Source of the DNA: a virus
Reading direction: 5' to 3' (one strand)
IMG/VR virus record: IMGVR_UViG_3300037474_000073
Length of the DNA: 64,000 bases
How positions within the stretch are numbered: the first letter of the stretch is position 1; each line of letters begins with the position of its first letter. A model generated the notes under the pieces. That model searched no databases. It had not been told where the DNA came from and saw only the letters and a list, made by a program, of their open reading frames with translations. Shown here piece by piece: positions 3,539 through 52,694 of the stretch. A program made the translations under genes and the position numbers.

Positions 3539-3943
3539 GTGGGGGTCATGGGACGGATCAGCGGCGACGAGTGGCACTCGCTGGCACGGCGGGAGGCGGC
3601 GCGCGAGTTCGGGAAGCGCCATTACGGCTCGTACGTCGTCAGCCAGTTCGCGCCGCACATCGCGCTGATCGTGCTGGCCGGTGCGGCGGGATTCGGCGCC
3701 TGGTGGCTCTACTCGCGCATTCACGCCGCCCTGTCCCGCCCCTCCGTCACGACCGAGGTCGCACAGGTCCACTCGGGCGTGCCGGTCTGGATCTGGTTCA
3801 CCGGCGCCTTGCTCGCGGTCGGCACGGTCGTCGTCTACCGCCCCGGTCGCGTCCCGTCGATGCCGGGCGTCGCGATTGCGAAGGTCGCGATCGTGCTCGT
3901 GCTGTGGCTCGCCTGGGTCGGATTCCTGCTCGCTCAGATCTGA
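3539..3943 (+). CDS. membrane protein, about 3 TM helices
   Basis: GTG directly after the TAG of the previous gene (alternative ATG at 3548). Hydrophobic segments IALIVLAGAAGFGAWWLY, VWIWFTGALLAVGTVVVY and IVLVLWLAWVGFLLA. Confidence 0.6.
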   Translation: MGVMGRISGDEWHSLARREAAREFGKRHYGSYVVSQFAPHIALIVLAGAAGFGAWWLYSRIHAALSRPSVTTEVAQVHSGVPVWIWFTGALLAVGTVVVYRPGRVPSMPGVAIAKVAIVLVLWLAWVGFLLAQI

Positions 3944-43396: not shown

Positions 43397-43447
43397 ACTG
43401 TACCCCCACGTACCGAGCAGCACAAGCCATCCGCGCAAGTTCTTTGC
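43397..43447 (-). promoter_or_regulatory. conserved promoter module (variant)
   Basis: Minus strand: GTGGGGGTACAGT (43397-43409), -35 TTGTGC (43420-43425) at a 17-bp spacing, and a degenerate palindrome GCAAAGAACTTGC (43435-43447). Confidence 0.5.
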
Positions 43448-43501: not shown

Positions 43502-44299
43502 CTACACCGGCCCCGAATCGTCAGCGTGGCGCTCAGCGGGCGGGCGGGCGGCTAGCTTGGCGGCGTGGCGCGCCTCGAGCCCGTGGGACCGCGCCTCGGC
43601 GTGCTGCCGCTGAAACCTCGCGTTCCACTCCCGCTGCCGCTGCTTCGCCGTCATGCACGGACCCAGGTGCGGCTCACCGCCCCGATCGCAGCCGGTCGCG
43701 TCATGCGTCACCTCGCCGAGCGACCGACCCGGCACGACCCGGTACTCCCGCACGAGCTGCTCGGTCGACGGGCGGGCAACCTCGAGGGTCCGCTGCGCGC
43801 ACACCGCGGTCAGGCTGTCGGTGCCCGTTCTCGAGCAGGCGCACCCCTCGACGTGCTGCATCTGAATCAAACCCTCATCGACGAGAGGCGCCAGCGCATC
43901 CAGCTCGGCGGCAAACTCCCGGCTCAGCGTCGCCGGCACCGAAACCCCGAGATCCCGCCGGCCGCGATATGCCTGCGTCCACCGCGTCGCGACCACCGTG
44001 TCCGGCCAGTCCCGACCCGGTTGCTGATTCGGGTGCGGGATCCGGATCCAGTACGGCCCGGCCGGCGTACCTTGCTCGATCGCTCCCCTGACGCCCTCTG
44101 CGATCTGCTCGAGCGTGAACGCGTACGGCGTCCACTCGCCGGCCGTGACCGACGGATGCCCGTCCCGCTCGGTCGTCCGGTACGGAGCCAGCCGCATCCG
44201 GTACAGCCCGAACCCCGGCTTGCCAGGCGCCCGGACCCGGCTCTTCGAGATCTCCACCCCGACCCAGCCCGCCTCGGTCCGTACCCGCTGCTCATCCAT
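43502..44299 (-). CDS. hypothetical protein (265 aa)
   Basis: Long ORF. No domain recognised. Confidence 0.6.
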   Translation of the reverse strand: MDEQRVRTEAGWVGVEISKSRVRAPGKPGFGLYRMRLAPYRTTERDGHPSVTAGEWTPYAFTLEQIAEGVRGAIEQGTPAGPYWIRIPHPNQQPGRDWPDTVVATRWTQAYRGRRDLGVSVPATLSREFAAELDALAPLVDEGLIQMQHVEGCACSRTGTDSLTAVCAQRTLEVARPSTEQLVREYRVVPGRSLGEVTHDATGCDRGGEPHLGPCMTAKQRQREWNARFQRQHAEARSHGLEARHAAKLAARPPAERHADDSGPV

Positions 44300-44664
44300 T
44301 ACTCACCCGCCGCAATCCGCTTGGCAGCCTTGATCGTGCCCACGAATACCAGCGGACAGGACAGCACCTCGGCCGCCCGACCTGCCTCGGAGATTCCACC
44401 CAGCGCGATCCCGACCGGCTCCATCACGTCGTCGGTCCATCCGATGATCGCGTACACGCCCCGCCCGTACTCTTCGTCGCTGACCGCCCACAGCGGCCAT
44501 CCCTGAACCTGCATCACCACTTCCCTCGGCCGGCACGGTGACCCGCGCCGCTCTCTCGTCTCCCACGCCAGACACCGCACACAACGGCGCTGGGTCACTC
44601 GCCAGGAACACCGGCGCGTCCCGAACACCGCGTCGTCCGCATCCCGCCACCCGTGCTCAGTCAT
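44299..44664 (-). CDS. hypothetical protein (121 aa), N-terminal Cys cluster
   Basis: Trimmed to the ATG that overlaps the upstream stop (TGATG). Confidence 0.5.
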   Translation of the reverse strand: MTEHGWRDADDAVFGTRRCSWRVTQRRCVRCLAWETRERRGSPCRPREVVMQVQGWPLWAVSDEEYGRGVYAIIGWTDDVMEPVGIALGGISEAGRAAEVLSCPLVFVGTIKAAKRIAAGE

Positions 44665-44885
44665 CAGACCATCCTGTATCTGAGTGCGGGATCGCCTCGC
44701 AGCACGTGCGCCCCGCCCCTGACTCCGTTCGATAGATCGCTCGGCATGATCGGTACTGCGTACGGCAGCCCGGTCCCCGACTCGAACCCGACCACCAGGT
44801 AAGTGATCACGGTCGCGTCCTCGGGGTCGGTGGTCGTCGCCCACAGCGGACACCGCACCGGAATGATCTCTGCATGGGTCTGCAT
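44664..44885 (-). CDS. hypothetical protein (73 aa)
   Basis: ATG after TCGAGAGAGAGACGTC. Confidence 0.55.
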   Translation of the reverse strand: MQTHAEIIPVRCPLWATTTDPEDATVITYLVVGFESGTGLPYAVPIMPSDLSNGVRGGAHVLRGDPALRYRMV

Positions 44886-44923
44886 GACGTCTCTCTCTCG
44901 ATCTTTACTAGTCGTATGACAAC

Positions 44924-45154
44924 GGGGGAACGGGGGAACAGGGGAACATGTTCCCCCTAGGGTGTCTCTCGCGGTGCTCCTCGCGTAACGCGAATCAAAC
45001 TTGTCTTATATTTATATTTATCTATATACGCAGGTCAGACCACATATCACGGAAATTCGTTGATCCTGCAATAATTGCGGTCGCAAACAAAAAGTGTCCG
45101 CGCGACACACACAGGGGGGAACAGGGGCGATGTTCCCCCCTAAAACGTTCCCCC
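44924..45154. repeat. origin-like region: GGGGAAC iterons flanking an AT-rich core
   Basis: GGGGGAAC at 44924 and 44932, GGGGAAC at 44941, inverted GTTCCCCC at 44950-44957 (palindrome GGGGAACATGTTCCCC 44941-44956). AT-rich 45004-45028. GCAATAATTGC 45068-45078. GTGTCCGCGCGACAC 45094-45108. GGGGGGAAC 45114-45122. GTTCCCCCC 45132-45140. GTTCCCCC 45147-45154. Confidence 0.55.
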
Positions 45155-45166
45155 GTACAAAACCGG

Positions 45167-46711
45167 TCATGACGGACTGTCCGAACCGAGCACCAGACAC
45201 CCGTCGACCTCTTCCTCGGCGATCCACCCGACCCGCCGAGCGTGCGCCAGAGCGGCATCGAAGAACGCCTTGTCGCGGCCCATCTTGTCTTTCTTGAGCG
45301 ACCACCTCTTGACCGGATCGAACGTCTCGTTGACGATCCGGTGGATCCGGCGGGCCACTCGTTCCACGTCCGAGCTGACCGCCACCTTCATGACCTCGAG
45401 CTCGGTCGCCTCGGCCAGACGAGCGGTCCGCTTCTCCTCGGCGAGACGTGCGTTCTCCTCATCTCGGTGCCGGATCAGCCGGTTCCGGATCGCCACCGAG
45501 ACCGACCAGATCATGCCGGCCAGGACCCAGTCGTCGCGGTTGACCAGCATCCGGCCGTCGAGGTAGCAGAGCAGGGCCGACAGCTTGGCGCGCATCAGCG
45601 GCTCGTGCGAGTCCATCGGGTCGAACTGGATCGTTCCGCGATGTTTGCCCCAGATCTGATGCCGGAACCACTTGCGGAGCTCGGCAGGGAACTGGATGAC
45701 ACCTGTCCGGCGCTCTTCGGCCGGCACGGTCATTGGCTCGGGGAACTCGAAGTCCTCTTCAGGGTCGGGCATCTCGGTGTCCGTGGCGCCGAACCAGAGG
45801 AACCGCTGCGGTGTGCCTGGACCGACGTCGGACAGCATGGCGACCGCGGTCTCGGGCTGGTAGCCGATGATGACGCCCATCGTGTACGACTCGGCTGGCA
45901 CGAGGCGGAACCGGTCCTCGCTCGCGTTCGCCTGGCTCAGCGTGCCGCCCGACCATGCCGTGCGCAGGTGCGGGCCGAGGGTGGCGCCAGACCGTTCGTG
46001 CATCAGCTTGGTCAGTGCCTCGCCCTCGTCGACGAAGAAGAACGCTCGGTGCCGGACCGCACGGCGGACCTTGACCATCTCGGGCTCGGGCACCGCGTTA
46101 CGACCACGCCCCCTGATCGCCATCTTGACCGAGCCGTCGGGGTTGGTCGCCTCGAGTTCGACCGTTCCCATGTAGGTCTCGGCCAGGCCCTCGCCGGTGC
46201 TGATGTTCAGACCGTCGCGGAACACGTCCATGTTCACCGCGCCGCCCGGTTCGAGCAGGTAGCTCGGCAGCCGGGTCAGCCGCTTGGCCGCCTTGTACGC
46301 ATCCGACTTGCCGATGCCGGACCCCGAGAGCAGGCAGGCGAACAGCGACAGCGTGCCGATCGACTTTCCTGTGTCGAACGTGACCTCGTGCCCGATGGCG
46401 CCGGCCGCTCGTGCGAGCACGCATGCGAGCACCGCGTCGGGATGGGTCTGACTCGCCCACGCCGCCTGCCGTATGGCCTTGAACATCTCGCGGGCGCCCC
46501 AGAACTCCTCGGGCAGCCGGTAGCGGGCGGCGATGGCCTCCTGAGCCGTCATCTCGGCGGGCGTATCCGCCGTCACGTGCGGTTCGATCCCCGCCCCGTA
46601 CACCTCGTCGAGCGGGAACCCCGAGTCGTCGGTCATGCCCTCCCACAGGTCGTCCGGCACGTGTGCGCCCTCGGCGGGCGTCACGCCGGCACCGCGGCCA
46701 CGGGCGGCCAT
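45167..46711 (-). CDS. DUF3987-type replicative helicase / replication initiator-like ATPase
   Basis: Walker A LSGSGIGKSD, Walker B FFFVDEGE. 514 aa (alternative start ATG 46636). Confidence 0.65.
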   Translation of the reverse strand: MAARGRGAGVTPAEGAHVPDDLWEGMTDDSGFPLDEVYGAGIEPHVTADTPAEMTAQEAIAARYRLPEEFWGAREMFKAIRQAAWASQTHPDAVLACVLARAAGAIGHEVTFDTGKSIGTLSLFACLLSGSGIGKSDAYKAAKRLTRLPSYLLEPGGAVNMDVFRDGLNISTGEGLAETYMGTVELEATNPDGSVKMAIRGRGRNAVPEPEMVKVRRAVRHRAFFFVDEGEALTKLMHERSGATLGPHLRTAWSGGTLSQANASEDRFRLVPAESYTMGVIIGYQPETAVAMLSDVGPGTPQRFLWFGATDTEMPDPEEDFEFPEPMTVPAEERRTGVIQFPAELRKWFRHQIWGKHRGTIQFDPMDSHEPLMRAKLSALLCYLDGRMLVNRDDWVLAGMIWSVSVAIRNRLIRHRDEENARLAEEKRTARLAEATELEVMKVAVSSDVERVARRIHRIVNETFDPVKRWSLKKDKMGRDKAFFDAALAHARRVGWIAEEEVDGCLVLGSDSPS

Positions 46712-49836: not shown

Positions 49837-51018
49837 TCAGCTCAGTACAACCATCGGCATGATCGCGTGTTGCCAGTTCGGGTCGTTGGGGCTGGTCAGT
49901 ACGATCGGCCGGCGGGTGAACTCTCCGACCTCGAAGCGCACCTCCACCTTGTCGCCGGGCACCGACCCGAGTGCCTCGGCCAGCCATTGCGGGTTGGTCG
50001 CGATCGAGCCGGACTCGCCGGTGTAGTCCACGTCGACCTGCTCGTTGCCGTCCTGGTCGAGATCCTTCTCGCTGGACGCGATGGTCAGCGTGCCGTCGGT
50101 GAACCGCAGCTTGACCGGTCCCTCCTTGCCCCGTACGATCGCCGCCCGCTTGAGCGGCATCGCCACCTCGGCGGGCTCGAGCACCGCCAGTCCGGCGTAG
50201 TTCTGTGCCTGGGCGAAGTTGCCGTCGAGGTGGATCGCCGGCCAGCCGTTCGGACCCGGATCGCCGAGGCGCATGACCAGCGACCGCGCGGGCGAGGTCA
50301 GCGAGATCCCGCCGTCGTGCAGCCCGATCGTGATTCGGCCGGGTCCGGTGAACGACGCGGCGGCGTCGATGAGGTTCGTTCCGTACGGGGTCGCCGACCG
50401 GCCGTATGCCGCGCCCTCGGCGTCGGGCGTCCACGGCAGCACGGTCTTGGCGACCCGGTACCGGTCGGTCGCGTAGACGGTGAGGTTGCTGTCGCCGGTC
50501 TCGTCGCCGAACCCGAGGAACATCTGCCGGAACACGGTCGTGTTATCGGGGTCTTTCAGGTTGGCGACGCCGACCCGTGCGATCGCGGCGGCGAATTGGT
50601 CGCCGTCGACCGATCCGATGGACGGCAGTTCGGCGGTCAGGCCGGGCCAGTCGTCCTCGCTGAACGTCGGCATCGTGCCGACCCAGCGCCCGACGGTGAG
50701 CATCAGGTGCCCGTTGCCGGCGGTGCCGATGCGCACGACCTGGTTGCCGCGGAACGTCGCGGCGAGCTCGCCGAGCAGGCGCCCGGACACGATCGCGATG
50801 CCGGCCGGCGTGTCGGTCAGGTTCTCCTCGGTGAGCACGGTCGCCCGCGCGGTCGCGTTCTCGTTGTACGTGGTGACGGTCAGCTTGCCGTCGCCGACCT
50901 CGAGCGCGACGCCGAGCCCAATCGGTGCCGCCGGCCGTGCCCCGATCCACTTGACCGCCCACGCCACGGCGGCCGCGAACGGCGCCGCCTTGACGGTGAC
51001 CTCTCCGGTGATCGTCAT
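49837..51018 (-). CDS. dnaN: DNA polymerase III beta sliding clamp
   Basis: Trimmed from track start 51192 to the ATG that overlaps the upstream stop (ATGA). Contains ATDRYRVA, NPQWLAEAL and a C-terminal AIMPMV. 393 aa. Confidence 0.85.
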   Translation of the reverse strand: MTITGEVTVKAAPFAAAVAWAVKWIGARPAAPIGLGVALEVGDGKLTVTTYNENATARATVLTEENLTDTPAGIAIVSGRLLGELAATFRGNQVVRIGTAGNGHLMLTVGRWVGTMPTFSEDDWPGLTAELPSIGSVDGDQFAAAIARVGVANLKDPDNTTVFRQMFLGFGDETGDSNLTVYATDRYRVAKTVLPWTPDAEGAAYGRSATPYGTNLIDAAASFTGPGRITIGLHDGGISLTSPARSLVMRLGDPGPNGWPAIHLDGNFAQAQNYAGLAVLEPAEVAMPLKRAAIVRGKEGPVKLRFTDGTLTIASSEKDLDQDGNEQVDVDYTGESGSIATNPQWLAEALGSVPGDKVEVRFEVGEFTRRPIVLTSPNDPNWQHAIMPMVVLS

Positions 51019-52694
51019 TCCTTTTCTCCACTCTCTCGGTTTTTCTCGCACTCGGCGACGCCGAGCATGACCCATTCGAAGACCGGCACGGCGATCGAGT
51101 TGCCGAGCTGCCGGTACCGCGCCGAGTCGGCCTGCGGTTTGCCGTTGCTGGTCGCCGTCCACCCGTCCGGATATCCCTGCAACCGTTCGCACTCCACCGG
51201 CGTCAGCCGCCGGACCGCCGAGGGCGAAGCGATCGCCCCGCCACTGGTGTTGTGTCCCGAGCGCACCGTGTTCGCCAGTTCGCGTGCTCGCGGTCCGACC
51301 CCATCGGTGTGCCCGAACGCGACCGGCTGGACGATCCGCAGTCCATGGTCGCCCCGCTCGCCCTCCTCGGCGGTGATGGTCGGCGCGGTGTCTGTCGGCG
51401 TGACGGTGATCCCGTCCTGGTTGCCGAGTGCCCGCTCCTTGTCGACGATGAAGTTCGTGTTGTGCCCCTGCCCGACCCCGCCGAGGTCGGCGCGCAGCGC
51501 GTACGCGATGAACGCCTCCTCGTCGGGGTGGTTGCGCTGAACGTGGGACATGAGCGCGGGTGAATTATCTCCGATCACCAGATTTGCCGAATCGCCCGCG
51601 TCGTATCGGTCCGCGCCCTTTCCTGCAGTCAAGGAATATGCAACCTCGGGTGCGATCGCGATGGCATGCGCGCCAGTCGTGTCCAGAGTGAACATCGCTC
51701 CGTCGTCATCGCCGTAGCCCGGTCCCGCTGGTCCAGCCGTGTCGCTACGCCCGATGATCGTGTTCTGCATGGGAAAGACGTGGTTCGCGAGTACGTCGGA
51801 AGCATCAACACCCGCCCGTCCGCCACCCATCCATGAGGTGAGCGCGCCGGCAAGGATCTGCCCGCCGGCCGCCGACTCGGCGTCGTACGGGGTACGGGCG
51901 TTGGTCTCGGACAGCGGCGAGATCACTTCTCCCGGTCCGCCAGCGAGCGCAACGCTGCGTGCAAGGACGCGGGCAGTTCGCGCTCGCGCCGCTTCGCCCG
52001 CCGCAGGATCCCCGTCGCGGCCTTGGGGCTCAAGCAGTACCTGAGCAGGTGCGGCCCAGTCTCGAGAATTCGCGACAATGACGACGCGGCGGCGCCGCTG
52101 GGGGACTCCGAAGTGCTGAGCGTCCAGCACTCGGTAGGCGTACCCATACCCGCGGTCTGCCAGTTCCCCGAGGACGGCACCCATTGCACCCCCGTGGATC
52201 TCGACGCACCGGCCGGGGCCACAGGCTCCTCCCCGAACAGAGTGAGGATCGGTGCAACCGTTTCCGCAGGCTCCGTTGCCTGGGCAGGGGCAGACCGACG
52301 ACAGGAGACCAGGGACGTTTTCCAGGACGACCCACCGACACCGAACACCGGTGAGCTCGAGAATCTCGTCGAGGATCCGCACGATCTCGAAATAGAGTCC
52401 CGAACGTGCGCCGTCCAGGCCCATGCGACGTCCCGCCAGGCTGAGATCCTGGCATGGGAAACCGGCTGTGATGATTCCGTTTCGGGGATCAAACCCGGCT
52501 GCGAGTAGGTCGGCACCGGTCACCTTCCTGATGTCGTCGAACATGGTCATGTCGGGGAAGTGATCGGCTGCCACGCCGGCCGCCGCCTTGTCGATCTCAA
52601 CGGCTGCCACGGTGCGGAACCCGACCCGTGCCAGTGCCAGCGGGAACCCGCTGATCCCGTCGAACATCGAGACGGCGGTCAGTTGGCTGTCCAT
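51015..52694 (-). CDS. DNA (cytosine-5)-methyltransferase
   Basis: Motif I FDGISGF, motif IV GFPCQDLS, motif VI ENVPGLL, motif X QLGNSIAVPV. Very long variable region (559 aa in total). Confidence 0.95.
   Translation of the reverse strand: MDSQLTAVSMFDGISGFPLALARVGFRTVAAVEIDKAAAGVAADHFPDMTMFDDIRKVTGADLLAAGFDPRNGIITAGFPCQDLSLAGRRMGLDGARSGLYFEIVRILDEILELTGVRCRWVVLENVPGLLSSVCPCPGNGACGNGCTDPHSVRGGACGPGRCVEIHGGAMGAVLGELADRGYGYAYRVLDAQHFGVPQRRRRVVIVANSRDWAAPAQVLLEPQGRDGDPAAGEAARARTARVLARSVALAGGPGEVISPLSETNARTPYDAESAAGGQILAGALTSWMGGGRAGVDASDVLANHVFPMQNTIIGRSDTAGPAGPGYGDDDGAMFTLDTTGAHAIAIAPEVAYSLTAGKGADRYDAGDSANLVIGDNSPALMSHVQRNHPDEEAFIAYALRADLGGVGQGHNTNFIVDKERALGNQDGITVTPTDTAPTITAEEGERGDHGLRIVQPVAFGHTDGVGPRARELANTVRSGHNTSGGAIASPSAVRRLTPVECERLQGYPDGWTATSNGKPQADSARYRQLGNSIAVPVFEWVMLGVAECEKNRESGEKE

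Follow-up and report, generated by a model that had tools for sequence, protein, structure and literature searches.

The intergenic spacer between positions 44886 and 45166 of the virus record IMGVR_UViG_3300037474_000073, a stretch of 64,000 nucleotides called here the window, is described as the candidate replication origin of a phage. The spacer, or gap, has 281 bp and separates two co-directional genes, since the genes on both sides lie on the minus strand. On the right is the gene of a DUF3987-type helicase; the original prediction that the gap adjoins the stop of this gene was borne out, with the TGA (minus strand) at 45167–45169, directly beside the gap. The GC content of the gap is 50.9%, against 67.5% for the whole window. 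The gap had also been described as the most AT-rich stretch of the window, which agrees with the frame-by-frame GC minima: the lowest-GC 281-bp frame starts at 44862, and the lowest 100-bp frame, with 36% GC, starts at 44991. The features of the locus are given below; the symbols > and < refer to the gene orientation.

44664..44885, minus strand: first downstream gene, 73 amino acids (aa), with no assigned function; GC content at third codon positions (GC3) of 0.80 in frame; outer limit of the proposed origin and outside it
44890–44899, minus strand: ribosome-binding stretch GAGAGAGAGA of the 73-aa gene, upstream of its start at 44885
44924..44957: helicase-distal repeat set, > < < <, with copies at 44950–44957 (minus), 44940–44947 (plus, 7 of 8 letters), 44932–44939 (plus) and 44924–44931 (plus)
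44924 and 44932, plus strand: direct GGGGGAAC copies, exact 8-mer
44940/44941, plus strand: (A)GGGGAAC copy, 7 of 8 letters matching
44941–44956, both strands: perfect 16-bp palindrome GGGGAACATGTTCCCC, within the distal set
44982..44998, minus strand: conserved TTGA(C/T)TCGCG block running into the small palindrome TCGCG-TTA-CGCGA; TTGACTCGCG is kept in most loci
45004..45028, no strand assigned: AT-rich core TCTTATATTTATATTTATCTATATA, which reads TATATAGATAAATATAAATATAAGA in gene orientation; point of lowest GC in the 64-kb window and proposed place of first strand opening
45029..45038, minus strand: conserved CTGACCTGCG block, adjoining the AT core on its helicase side; CTGA(C/G)CTG is kept in at least 80% of 20 aligned loci
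45068..45078, no strand assigned: palindrome GCAATAATTGC; GCAAATTGATTGC is at the same relative place in relatives
45084..45108, minus strand: small hairpin GTGTCgcgcgGACAC followed by TTTTTGTTTG, a terminator-like match on the gene strand
45094–45108, no strand assigned: GTGTCcgcgcGACAC, of the GTGTC-cgcgc-GACAC type
45114, plus strand: GGGGGGAAC, right-hand copy
45114..45154: helicase-proximal repeat set, > > <, with copies at 45147–45154 (minus), 45132–45139 (minus) and 45115–45122 (plus)
45132 and 45147, minus strand: inverted GTTCCCCC(C) copies, right-hand side
45167..46711, minus strand: putative initiator-helicase gene, 514 aa, DUF3987 / superfamily 6 (SF6) MCM-like AAA+, from Pfam, PHROG and a structure model
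45170..45373, minus strand: coding region of the predicted winged-helix domain, residues 447–514, proposed as the reader of the repeats

Every repeat and palindrome named in the original prediction, including the one of the GTGTC-cgcgc-GACAC type, was found in its place. The short repeats, or iterons, form two sets, with three copies on the helicase side and four on the distal side, both orientations being present on each side of the lowest-GC point. The first iteron is located ~13 nt past the helicase stop codon, and the inner pair of the proximal set is an 11-bp inverted repeat with a 7-nt spacer. Together with a GGGTGTCTC / GAGACACCC motif that flanks each of them, the two sets make up a long inverted repeat with an interruption, which the original prediction had missed; its 26-nt arms (44949–44974 and 45098–45123) are 81% complementary. 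The heptamer GGGGAAC occurs 17 times in the window, for which 9.2 copies are expected; seven are within the gap, and the 10 outside it are at chance level. The exact GGGGGAAC is more concentrated, with six of its seven window copies in the gap and 2.25 expected for the whole window. These repeats exceed chance far beyond.

Many relatives were found in IMG/VR, in JGI metagenomes and in a large protein collection, while the DNA of the gap with its flanks had no match among the 50,697 phage records searched, and a pattern scan of genome contigs with single-protein patterns gave no relative. An exact search of IMG/VR with 18 nt of the AT core was discarded, as the ~100 loci obtained were all in AT-rich unrelated genomes except one, the contig of locus L002. 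The comparison set consisted of 20 related loci (designated with L numbers), from ~67-kb phage contigs and two integrated Actinoplanes elements, in which the DNA 3′ of the helicase gene was read; the identity of their helicases to that of the window ranges from 41% to 78%. The complete relatives have 66–70 kb; four of them were checked, and three of these are reported to have terminal repeats. The helicase has more than 100 homologues, of which P0071, P0073 and P0100 sit in Actinoplanes genomes; this points to the Micromonosporaceae as the host group, and the window most likely belongs to an uncultivated phage of ~67 kb that infects Actinoplanes-like soil actinobacteria.

The layout of the gap is kept in these loci. 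A first set, mostly > > < and sometimes with one copy more or fewer, lies 3–30 nt past the helicase stop in all the 20 relatives. In 19 of them a second set, made from the same word, follows at a distance of ~150–190 nt from the first, with the AT core in between; the count is 19 because the L011 contig stops before the complete second set. The second set is > < < in most relatives, with departures in L002, L119, L120, L122 and L126, and not every set has both orientations. The spacer contains the conserved blocks CAAGATCTCAAAAAAC and CTGA(C/G)CTG, then the AT core TATATAGATAAATATAAATAT or a variant of it; after the core comes TTGACTCGCG, often followed by a small palindrome. The 21-mer TATATAGATAAATATAAATAT is nearly letter-identical in L002, L012, L015, L118 and L122, and is almost unchanged in L015 even though the L015 helicase is only 43% identical to that of the window. 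The central ~80 bp are thus conserved in sequence, beyond AT content alone.

The word of the repeats changes from one group of loci to another, and every locus in which both sides are present uses a single word on the two. The core words are listed with their loci and, for five of them, with the motif found around residues 477–482 of the helicase:

GGGAAC, window and L012: K-M-GRDK
GGGACC, L001, L008, L010 and L011: F-GR(L/W/Q)KP
GGGGAC, L002 and L122: I-GRDK
GGGTAC, L007, L118–L121 and L126: (F/M/Y)-GRDK(P/K)
GGGTTC, L003 and L004: L-SRDKP
GGGGGT, L015
GTGGAC, L016 and L125; with an added C in L123 and L124

Since the word differs between loci and yet matches across each core, the repeats appear to be read by one sequence-specific binder whose specificity has diverged. 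In the four complete relatives (CheckV 100%), the copies of the word at the origin locus are 5 of 6, 5 of 9, 5 of 5 and 6 of 14. This concentration at a single locus per genome suggests that the binder has one target, which fits an origin and not a general regulator.

The helicase is the only constant partner of the repeats. The genes upstream of it vary among the relatives, with methyltransferases of several sizes and unrelated small open reading frames (ORFs); those downstream vary too, and the pairing is kept in integrated elements that carry different recombinases. A conserved small protein encoded upstream of the helicase was considered as an alternative binder and rejected, because the window, L015 and L016 have none in common. 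Within the helicase, divergence is greatest in the tail, with 36–60% identity where the core has 58–89%. Two natural swaps are found among the loci. The helicase of L008 joins a core of the window/L003 type (81–84%) to a tail of the L001/L010/L011 type (71–73%), and the locus has the word of the latter, GGGACC; that of L002 has a core 86–89% identical to the L001 group and a tail only 40–43% identical, with a different word. Every position of the helicase was also tested for association with the repeat word. Across the whole protein, the column that follows the word best is residue 477, before G478-R479 and at the start of helix 3, the recognition helix, and 16 of the 20 top columns are in residues 436–510, which represent 15% of the protein.

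The helicase matches Pfam DUF3987 (E 9e-7), and it matches PHROG primase/polymerase families over their helicase part only. Its best matches in isolated phages are the C-terminal halves of primase/polymerases from Gordonia and Mycobacterium phages, with 25–30% identity. An AlphaFold2 model built from a 94-sequence alignment (predicted local distance difference test, pLDDT, of 90.8; predicted template modelling score, pTM, of 0.83) presents an N-terminal helical domain, an AAA+ core, a very long helix at residues 392–462 and a C-terminal winged helix. The last is formed in the model by helix 447–462, a short strand, helices 469–476 and 478–493, and a beta wing at ~497–507, with pLDDT of 85–97. 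The top PDB matches in Foldseek are MCM2-7 and archaeal MCM (E 2e-5, template modelling score, TM, of ~0.35), and the closest entries of a viral structure library are phage DUF3987 helicases (best E 5e-18). These matches agree with the class of DUF3987, which belongs to SF6, is distantly related to MCM and carries a winged helix-turn-helix at its C-terminus (Kazlauskas et al. 2016, PMC4889955). A protein with PriCT and DUF3987 is an active helicase (PMC11724360). A profile of 10 helicases searched against PDB sequences found no solved structure at E up to 1. Among the other proteins of the window are a sliding clamp, or DNA polymerase processivity factor (49837–51192, minus strand; phrog_947, E 3e-35), an ERF recombinase, two exonucleases and two DNA methyltransferases.

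Based on the sequence comparisons, the gap is quite probably the replication origin of this phage, built for a self-loading initiator-helicase. The original prediction had proposed an origin here, and that proposal is now supported by the layout in 20 relatives, by the word being shared across the core and by a winged helix whose recognition-helix start tracks this word. That the helicase binds here, that the DNA opens, that rings are loaded and that synthesis begins are steps that we infer. The winged helices of the helicase subunits would bind the 8-bp iterons (GGGGGAAC), whose two sets of opposite polarity flank a spacer of ~160 bp, so that one helicase oligomer might assemble on each set, the two facing each other across the spacer. 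The 25-bp AT core (45004–45028) would melt first, and two helicase rings could then be loaded for bidirectional replication, after which the host replisome and the phage sliding clamp would take over.

Some observations weigh against this interpretation. The cumulative GC skew, proposed earlier as a check, climbs in the 64-kb window as far as 26 kb and then declines steadily until 58 kb, with no turning point at 45 kb; as all the genes between 5 and 59 kb are on one strand, the skew is dominated by transcription and coding bias, and it neither supports nor refutes an origin. The tail domain adjoins the repeats on the DNA, so linkage could yield part of the association between tail and word. 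Loci with the same word may have tails only 41–54% identical, and the number of word changes, 10 on the helicase-core tree against 9 on a poorly resolved tail tree, is not discriminating. Family scans recognised neither a primase nor a DNA polymerase among the window proteins, and the phage therefore probably relies on the host replisome. Moreover, the AT core is conserved as sequence, which a simple unwinding element does not need; this suggests that the core has a further function.

Such a function would be explained by a modular origin, in which the outer iterons change their word with the helicase tail and the inner ~80 bp are read by a factor common to the lineages. The inner layer, consisting of CTGACCTG, then TATATAGATAAATATAAATAT, then TTGACTCGCG and the small palindrome, is near-constant even at 43% helicase identity. 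A host factor, the host primase or replisome, a priming signal and the conserved helicase core are reasonable guesses for what acts on it. In this modular arrangement the changing iteron words would give each phage lineage a private origin. We put it forward tentatively, as a possibility somewhat doubtful for the moment.

Regulatory explanations of the gap were weighed together with the origin. The repeats could be operators that control a promoter in the AT core for the genes from 44885 on. Short palindromic repeats are typical of operators; the genes downstream, whose ribosome-binding sites are ordinary, depend on a transcript running through the distal set; a conserved TTGACT, similar to a -35 element, follows the AT core; and the nearest recognisable promoter module is otherwise only at 43399. 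However, the suggestion that the gap holds the promoter of the 44885 operon was not sustained, as a scan for sigma-70-type promoters found none in the gap, and no locus has a TANNNT -10 at 16–18 nt from TTGACT. The promoter module of this phage, a palindrome GCAAG-N3-CTTGC followed after ~17 nt by GGGGGTACAGT, has eight copies in the window (33865, 43399, 54976, 54997, 59479, 60184, 63351 and 63402) and none in the gap, and relatives keep it constant, in contrast to their repeats. A single base separates the iteron GGGGGAACA from the G-box GGGGGTACA of this module, and the iterons were considered as copies of it; this was rejected, since relatives whose iterons are GGGACC, GGGGAC or ACGGGTAC retain the G-box GGGGTACAGT unaltered. 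The G-box being constant whatever the iteron word, the iterons are not promoter elements, and these are two separate signals. In addition, the repeat word is in no other intergenic region, the downstream genes differ by locus while the repeats always accompany the helicase, and no candidate regulator is conserved beside the repeats. Operator control of this kind is improbable. It is likewise unlikely that the helicase tail binds the repeats while replication starts elsewhere, the gap acting in autoregulation, or as an enhancer or a parking place for the helicase in the manner of crr of phage P4. All the evidence for the pairing of helicase and repeats also fits a binding site that is not an origin, the GC skew does not mark the gap, and in P4 a further iteron region (crr) exists separately from the ori. 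On the other side, no second cluster of the word occurs in the window or in the four complete relatives, the repeat site comes after the helicase gene and not ahead of it, and the most easily melted DNA of the window sits exactly between the two opposed sets, which an autoregulatory site does not need.

The GC-rich inverted repeats could also be mere terminators or RNA hairpins between operons, with the AT centre as filler. A strong hairpin is predicted ~25 nt past the stop codon, with −33.4 kcal/mol (z −1.9) for 45085–45166 on the minus strand, and it is followed by the small hairpin with a T-run. A terminator, however, requires only that the arms of one hairpin be complementary, and needs neither a set with the same word 170 bp away nor unpaired direct copies, and both are in nearly all loci; the folding z-scores are modest; the central 80 bp are conserved in sequence; and an Rfam search of the gap gave no match. 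The small hairpin with its T-run is not kept in relatives, and is thus at most a local add-on. This makes a purely terminating role very improbable, although the GC-rich hairpins of the proximal set and the hairpin with T-run at 45084–45108 may additionally end helicase-operon transcription in this phage. It is extremely unlikely that the gap is an attP attachment site flanked by arm-type sites, or a centromere-like partition site. Repeated protein-binding words around a core also occur in attP and in parS-type sites, but no integrase or partition gene was found beside the gap in the window, and the 64-kb window has no tRNA. The integrated relatives have unrelated recombinases (tyrosine in L016, serine in L125) on the opposite side of the helicase from the repeats, which are still directly 3′ of the helicase gene.

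For the self-loading initiator-helicase origin, the theta-type iteron layout cited in the original prediction had to be replaced as the term of comparison, a better fit being the origins of staphylococcal pathogenicity islands (SaPIs) and phage-inducible chromosomal islands (PICIs) (PMC9371898). The SaPI Rep, a helicase that loads itself, recognises short iterons through its C-terminal winged helix; its ori has 6–12 iterons directly downstream of the rep frame, with an AT-rich centre and at least two iterons per side in opposite directions, and each side is believed to receive one hexamer (PMC9371898). Binding, ATP-independent melting and plasmid-like replication have been shown for SaPIs, and both the iteron sequence and the Rep specificity differ between related elements (PMC9371898). 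Rep2 and the SaPIbov1 Rep are of the SF6 class (PMC9371898, citing Ubeda 2007, 2012), as is the helicase described here. Like these systems, the locus has as candidate initiator an AAA+ helicase with a C-terminal winged helix (from Pfam DUF3987 and the predicted model), a putative ori directly after the initiator frame (~13 nt in the window, 3–30 nt in relatives) and at least two iterons in opposite directions on each side of an AT-rich centre (3 + 4 in the window). Unlike SaPI iterons, which are penta- or hexanucleotides, those of the gap have 8 bp and are G-rich. The carrier is a full-size ~67-kb phage of high-GC actinobacteria instead of a satellite, no primase gene was recognised beside the helicase, and even very distant relatives keep the sequence of the central region. 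The sequence-profile search of the PDB gave no homology to SaPI Rep, and SaPI Rep chains are outside the top 50 fold matches, so the likeness is a functional analogy ("works like") and not family membership.

Other known systems share part of this design. The alpha protein of P4 reads short repeated octamers in both orientations via a C-terminal winged helix; it is a fusion of primase and SF3 helicase and needs the distant crr. The gap, unlike P4, is a single site, and its helicase has an SF6-like fold and no primase domain. Archaeal and eukaryotic MCM, the best structural matches, also have an AAA+ core followed by a C-terminal winged helix, and their loading as two opposed rings is a paradigm that fits the mirror layout of the gap. 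However, MCM is loaded by ORC/Cdc6 and does not itself read the origin, the TM score is only ~0.35, and the N-terminal OB/zinc domain of MCM was not identified in the helicase. Theta plasmids with Rep_3-type initiators (pPS10, R6K, RK2, F) have direct iterons of 17–22 bp on one side of an AT-rich element; these initiators are winged-helix-only proteins that recruit the host DnaB, and DnaA boxes are usual. As in these origins and in the lambda ori, repeats for the initiator are found by an AT-rich unwinding element and near the initiator gene. The gap differs from the theta-plasmid origins in its opposed 8-bp repeats and in its helicase, which is not of the Rep_3 type, and no DnaA-box-like sites were found in it.

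A self-loading initiator-helicase origin is already known from staphylococcal pathogenicity islands, and the gap is a well-supported ordinary case of it, not a new principle. The value of the locus is in an unusually clean comparative series. It provides a concrete and testable candidate for origin and initiator in a clade of uncultivated 66–70-kb actinobacterial phages that have no DNA match among the phage records searched, and this type of origin, characterised in staphylococcal satellites, would thereby reach phages of full size whose helicase is an MCM-like DUF3987 protein. Seven repeat cores occur naturally, paired with helicases that have 58–98% identity in their own cores, and they constitute a series for mapping how a winged helix reads 6–8 bp, and residues 477 and 480–482 are the first candidate specificity positions. 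The helicase-plus-gap cassette could also serve as a replicon for Actinoplanes or Micromonospora genetics.

Regarding the neighbouring genes, the 73-aa product has no family match in Pfam or PHROG, and an overlapping ORF of 184 aa does not present the GC3 pattern of the 73-aa frame. The gene at this position varies among the relatives. In the window (43502–44885) and in the matching regions of L001–L126, the helicase and the putative origin appear as a fixed module between two gene-replacement hot spots.

Smaller palindromes were observed in the spacer. The one beside the AT core, CTCGCG-N3-5-CGCGAG, is also present in L002, L012, L015, L118, L119 and L125, and could be a hairpin or a dimer-binding site. 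Its arms are double-changed, from CTCGCG..CGCGAG to CTCACG..CGTGAG, in L015, L118, L119 and L125, and the palindrome at the position of 44982–44998 is absent in five loci (L001, L010, L011, L120 and L122). A palindrome of the GCAA-N3-5-TTGC type is also found in L001, L008, L010, L011 and L126, ~95–110 nt past the helicase stop. In the window, GCAATAATTGC is similar to the phage operator GCAAG-N3-CTTGC but shorter, and the spacing of its half-sites is unlike that of the operator; such a palindrome in the spacer might link regulator binding and replication.

Among the relatives, the iteron GGGGGTAC of L007, L120 and L121 equals the core of the promoter G-box. The L011 contig ends inside the distal repeats (3780–3823) in the G/C run GGGGGGGGGGGGGGCCCGGGCCCCCC, which looks like an assembly break caused by the repeats. 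In the integrated element of A. solisilvae (L016, 4483–4700), a tyrosine integrase, an HTH_17 protein and the helicase are followed by the same origin layout; that of Actinoplanes sp. M2I2 (L125, 4483–4720) has a serine recombinase, an HTH_3 protein, the helicase and a portal gene, again with the same layout. The consensus of the actinobacterial DnaA box is TTGTCCACA, and the iteron of these two elements, ATGTGGACA / TGTCCACAT, resembles it; the integrated elements may therefore have captured the host initiator.

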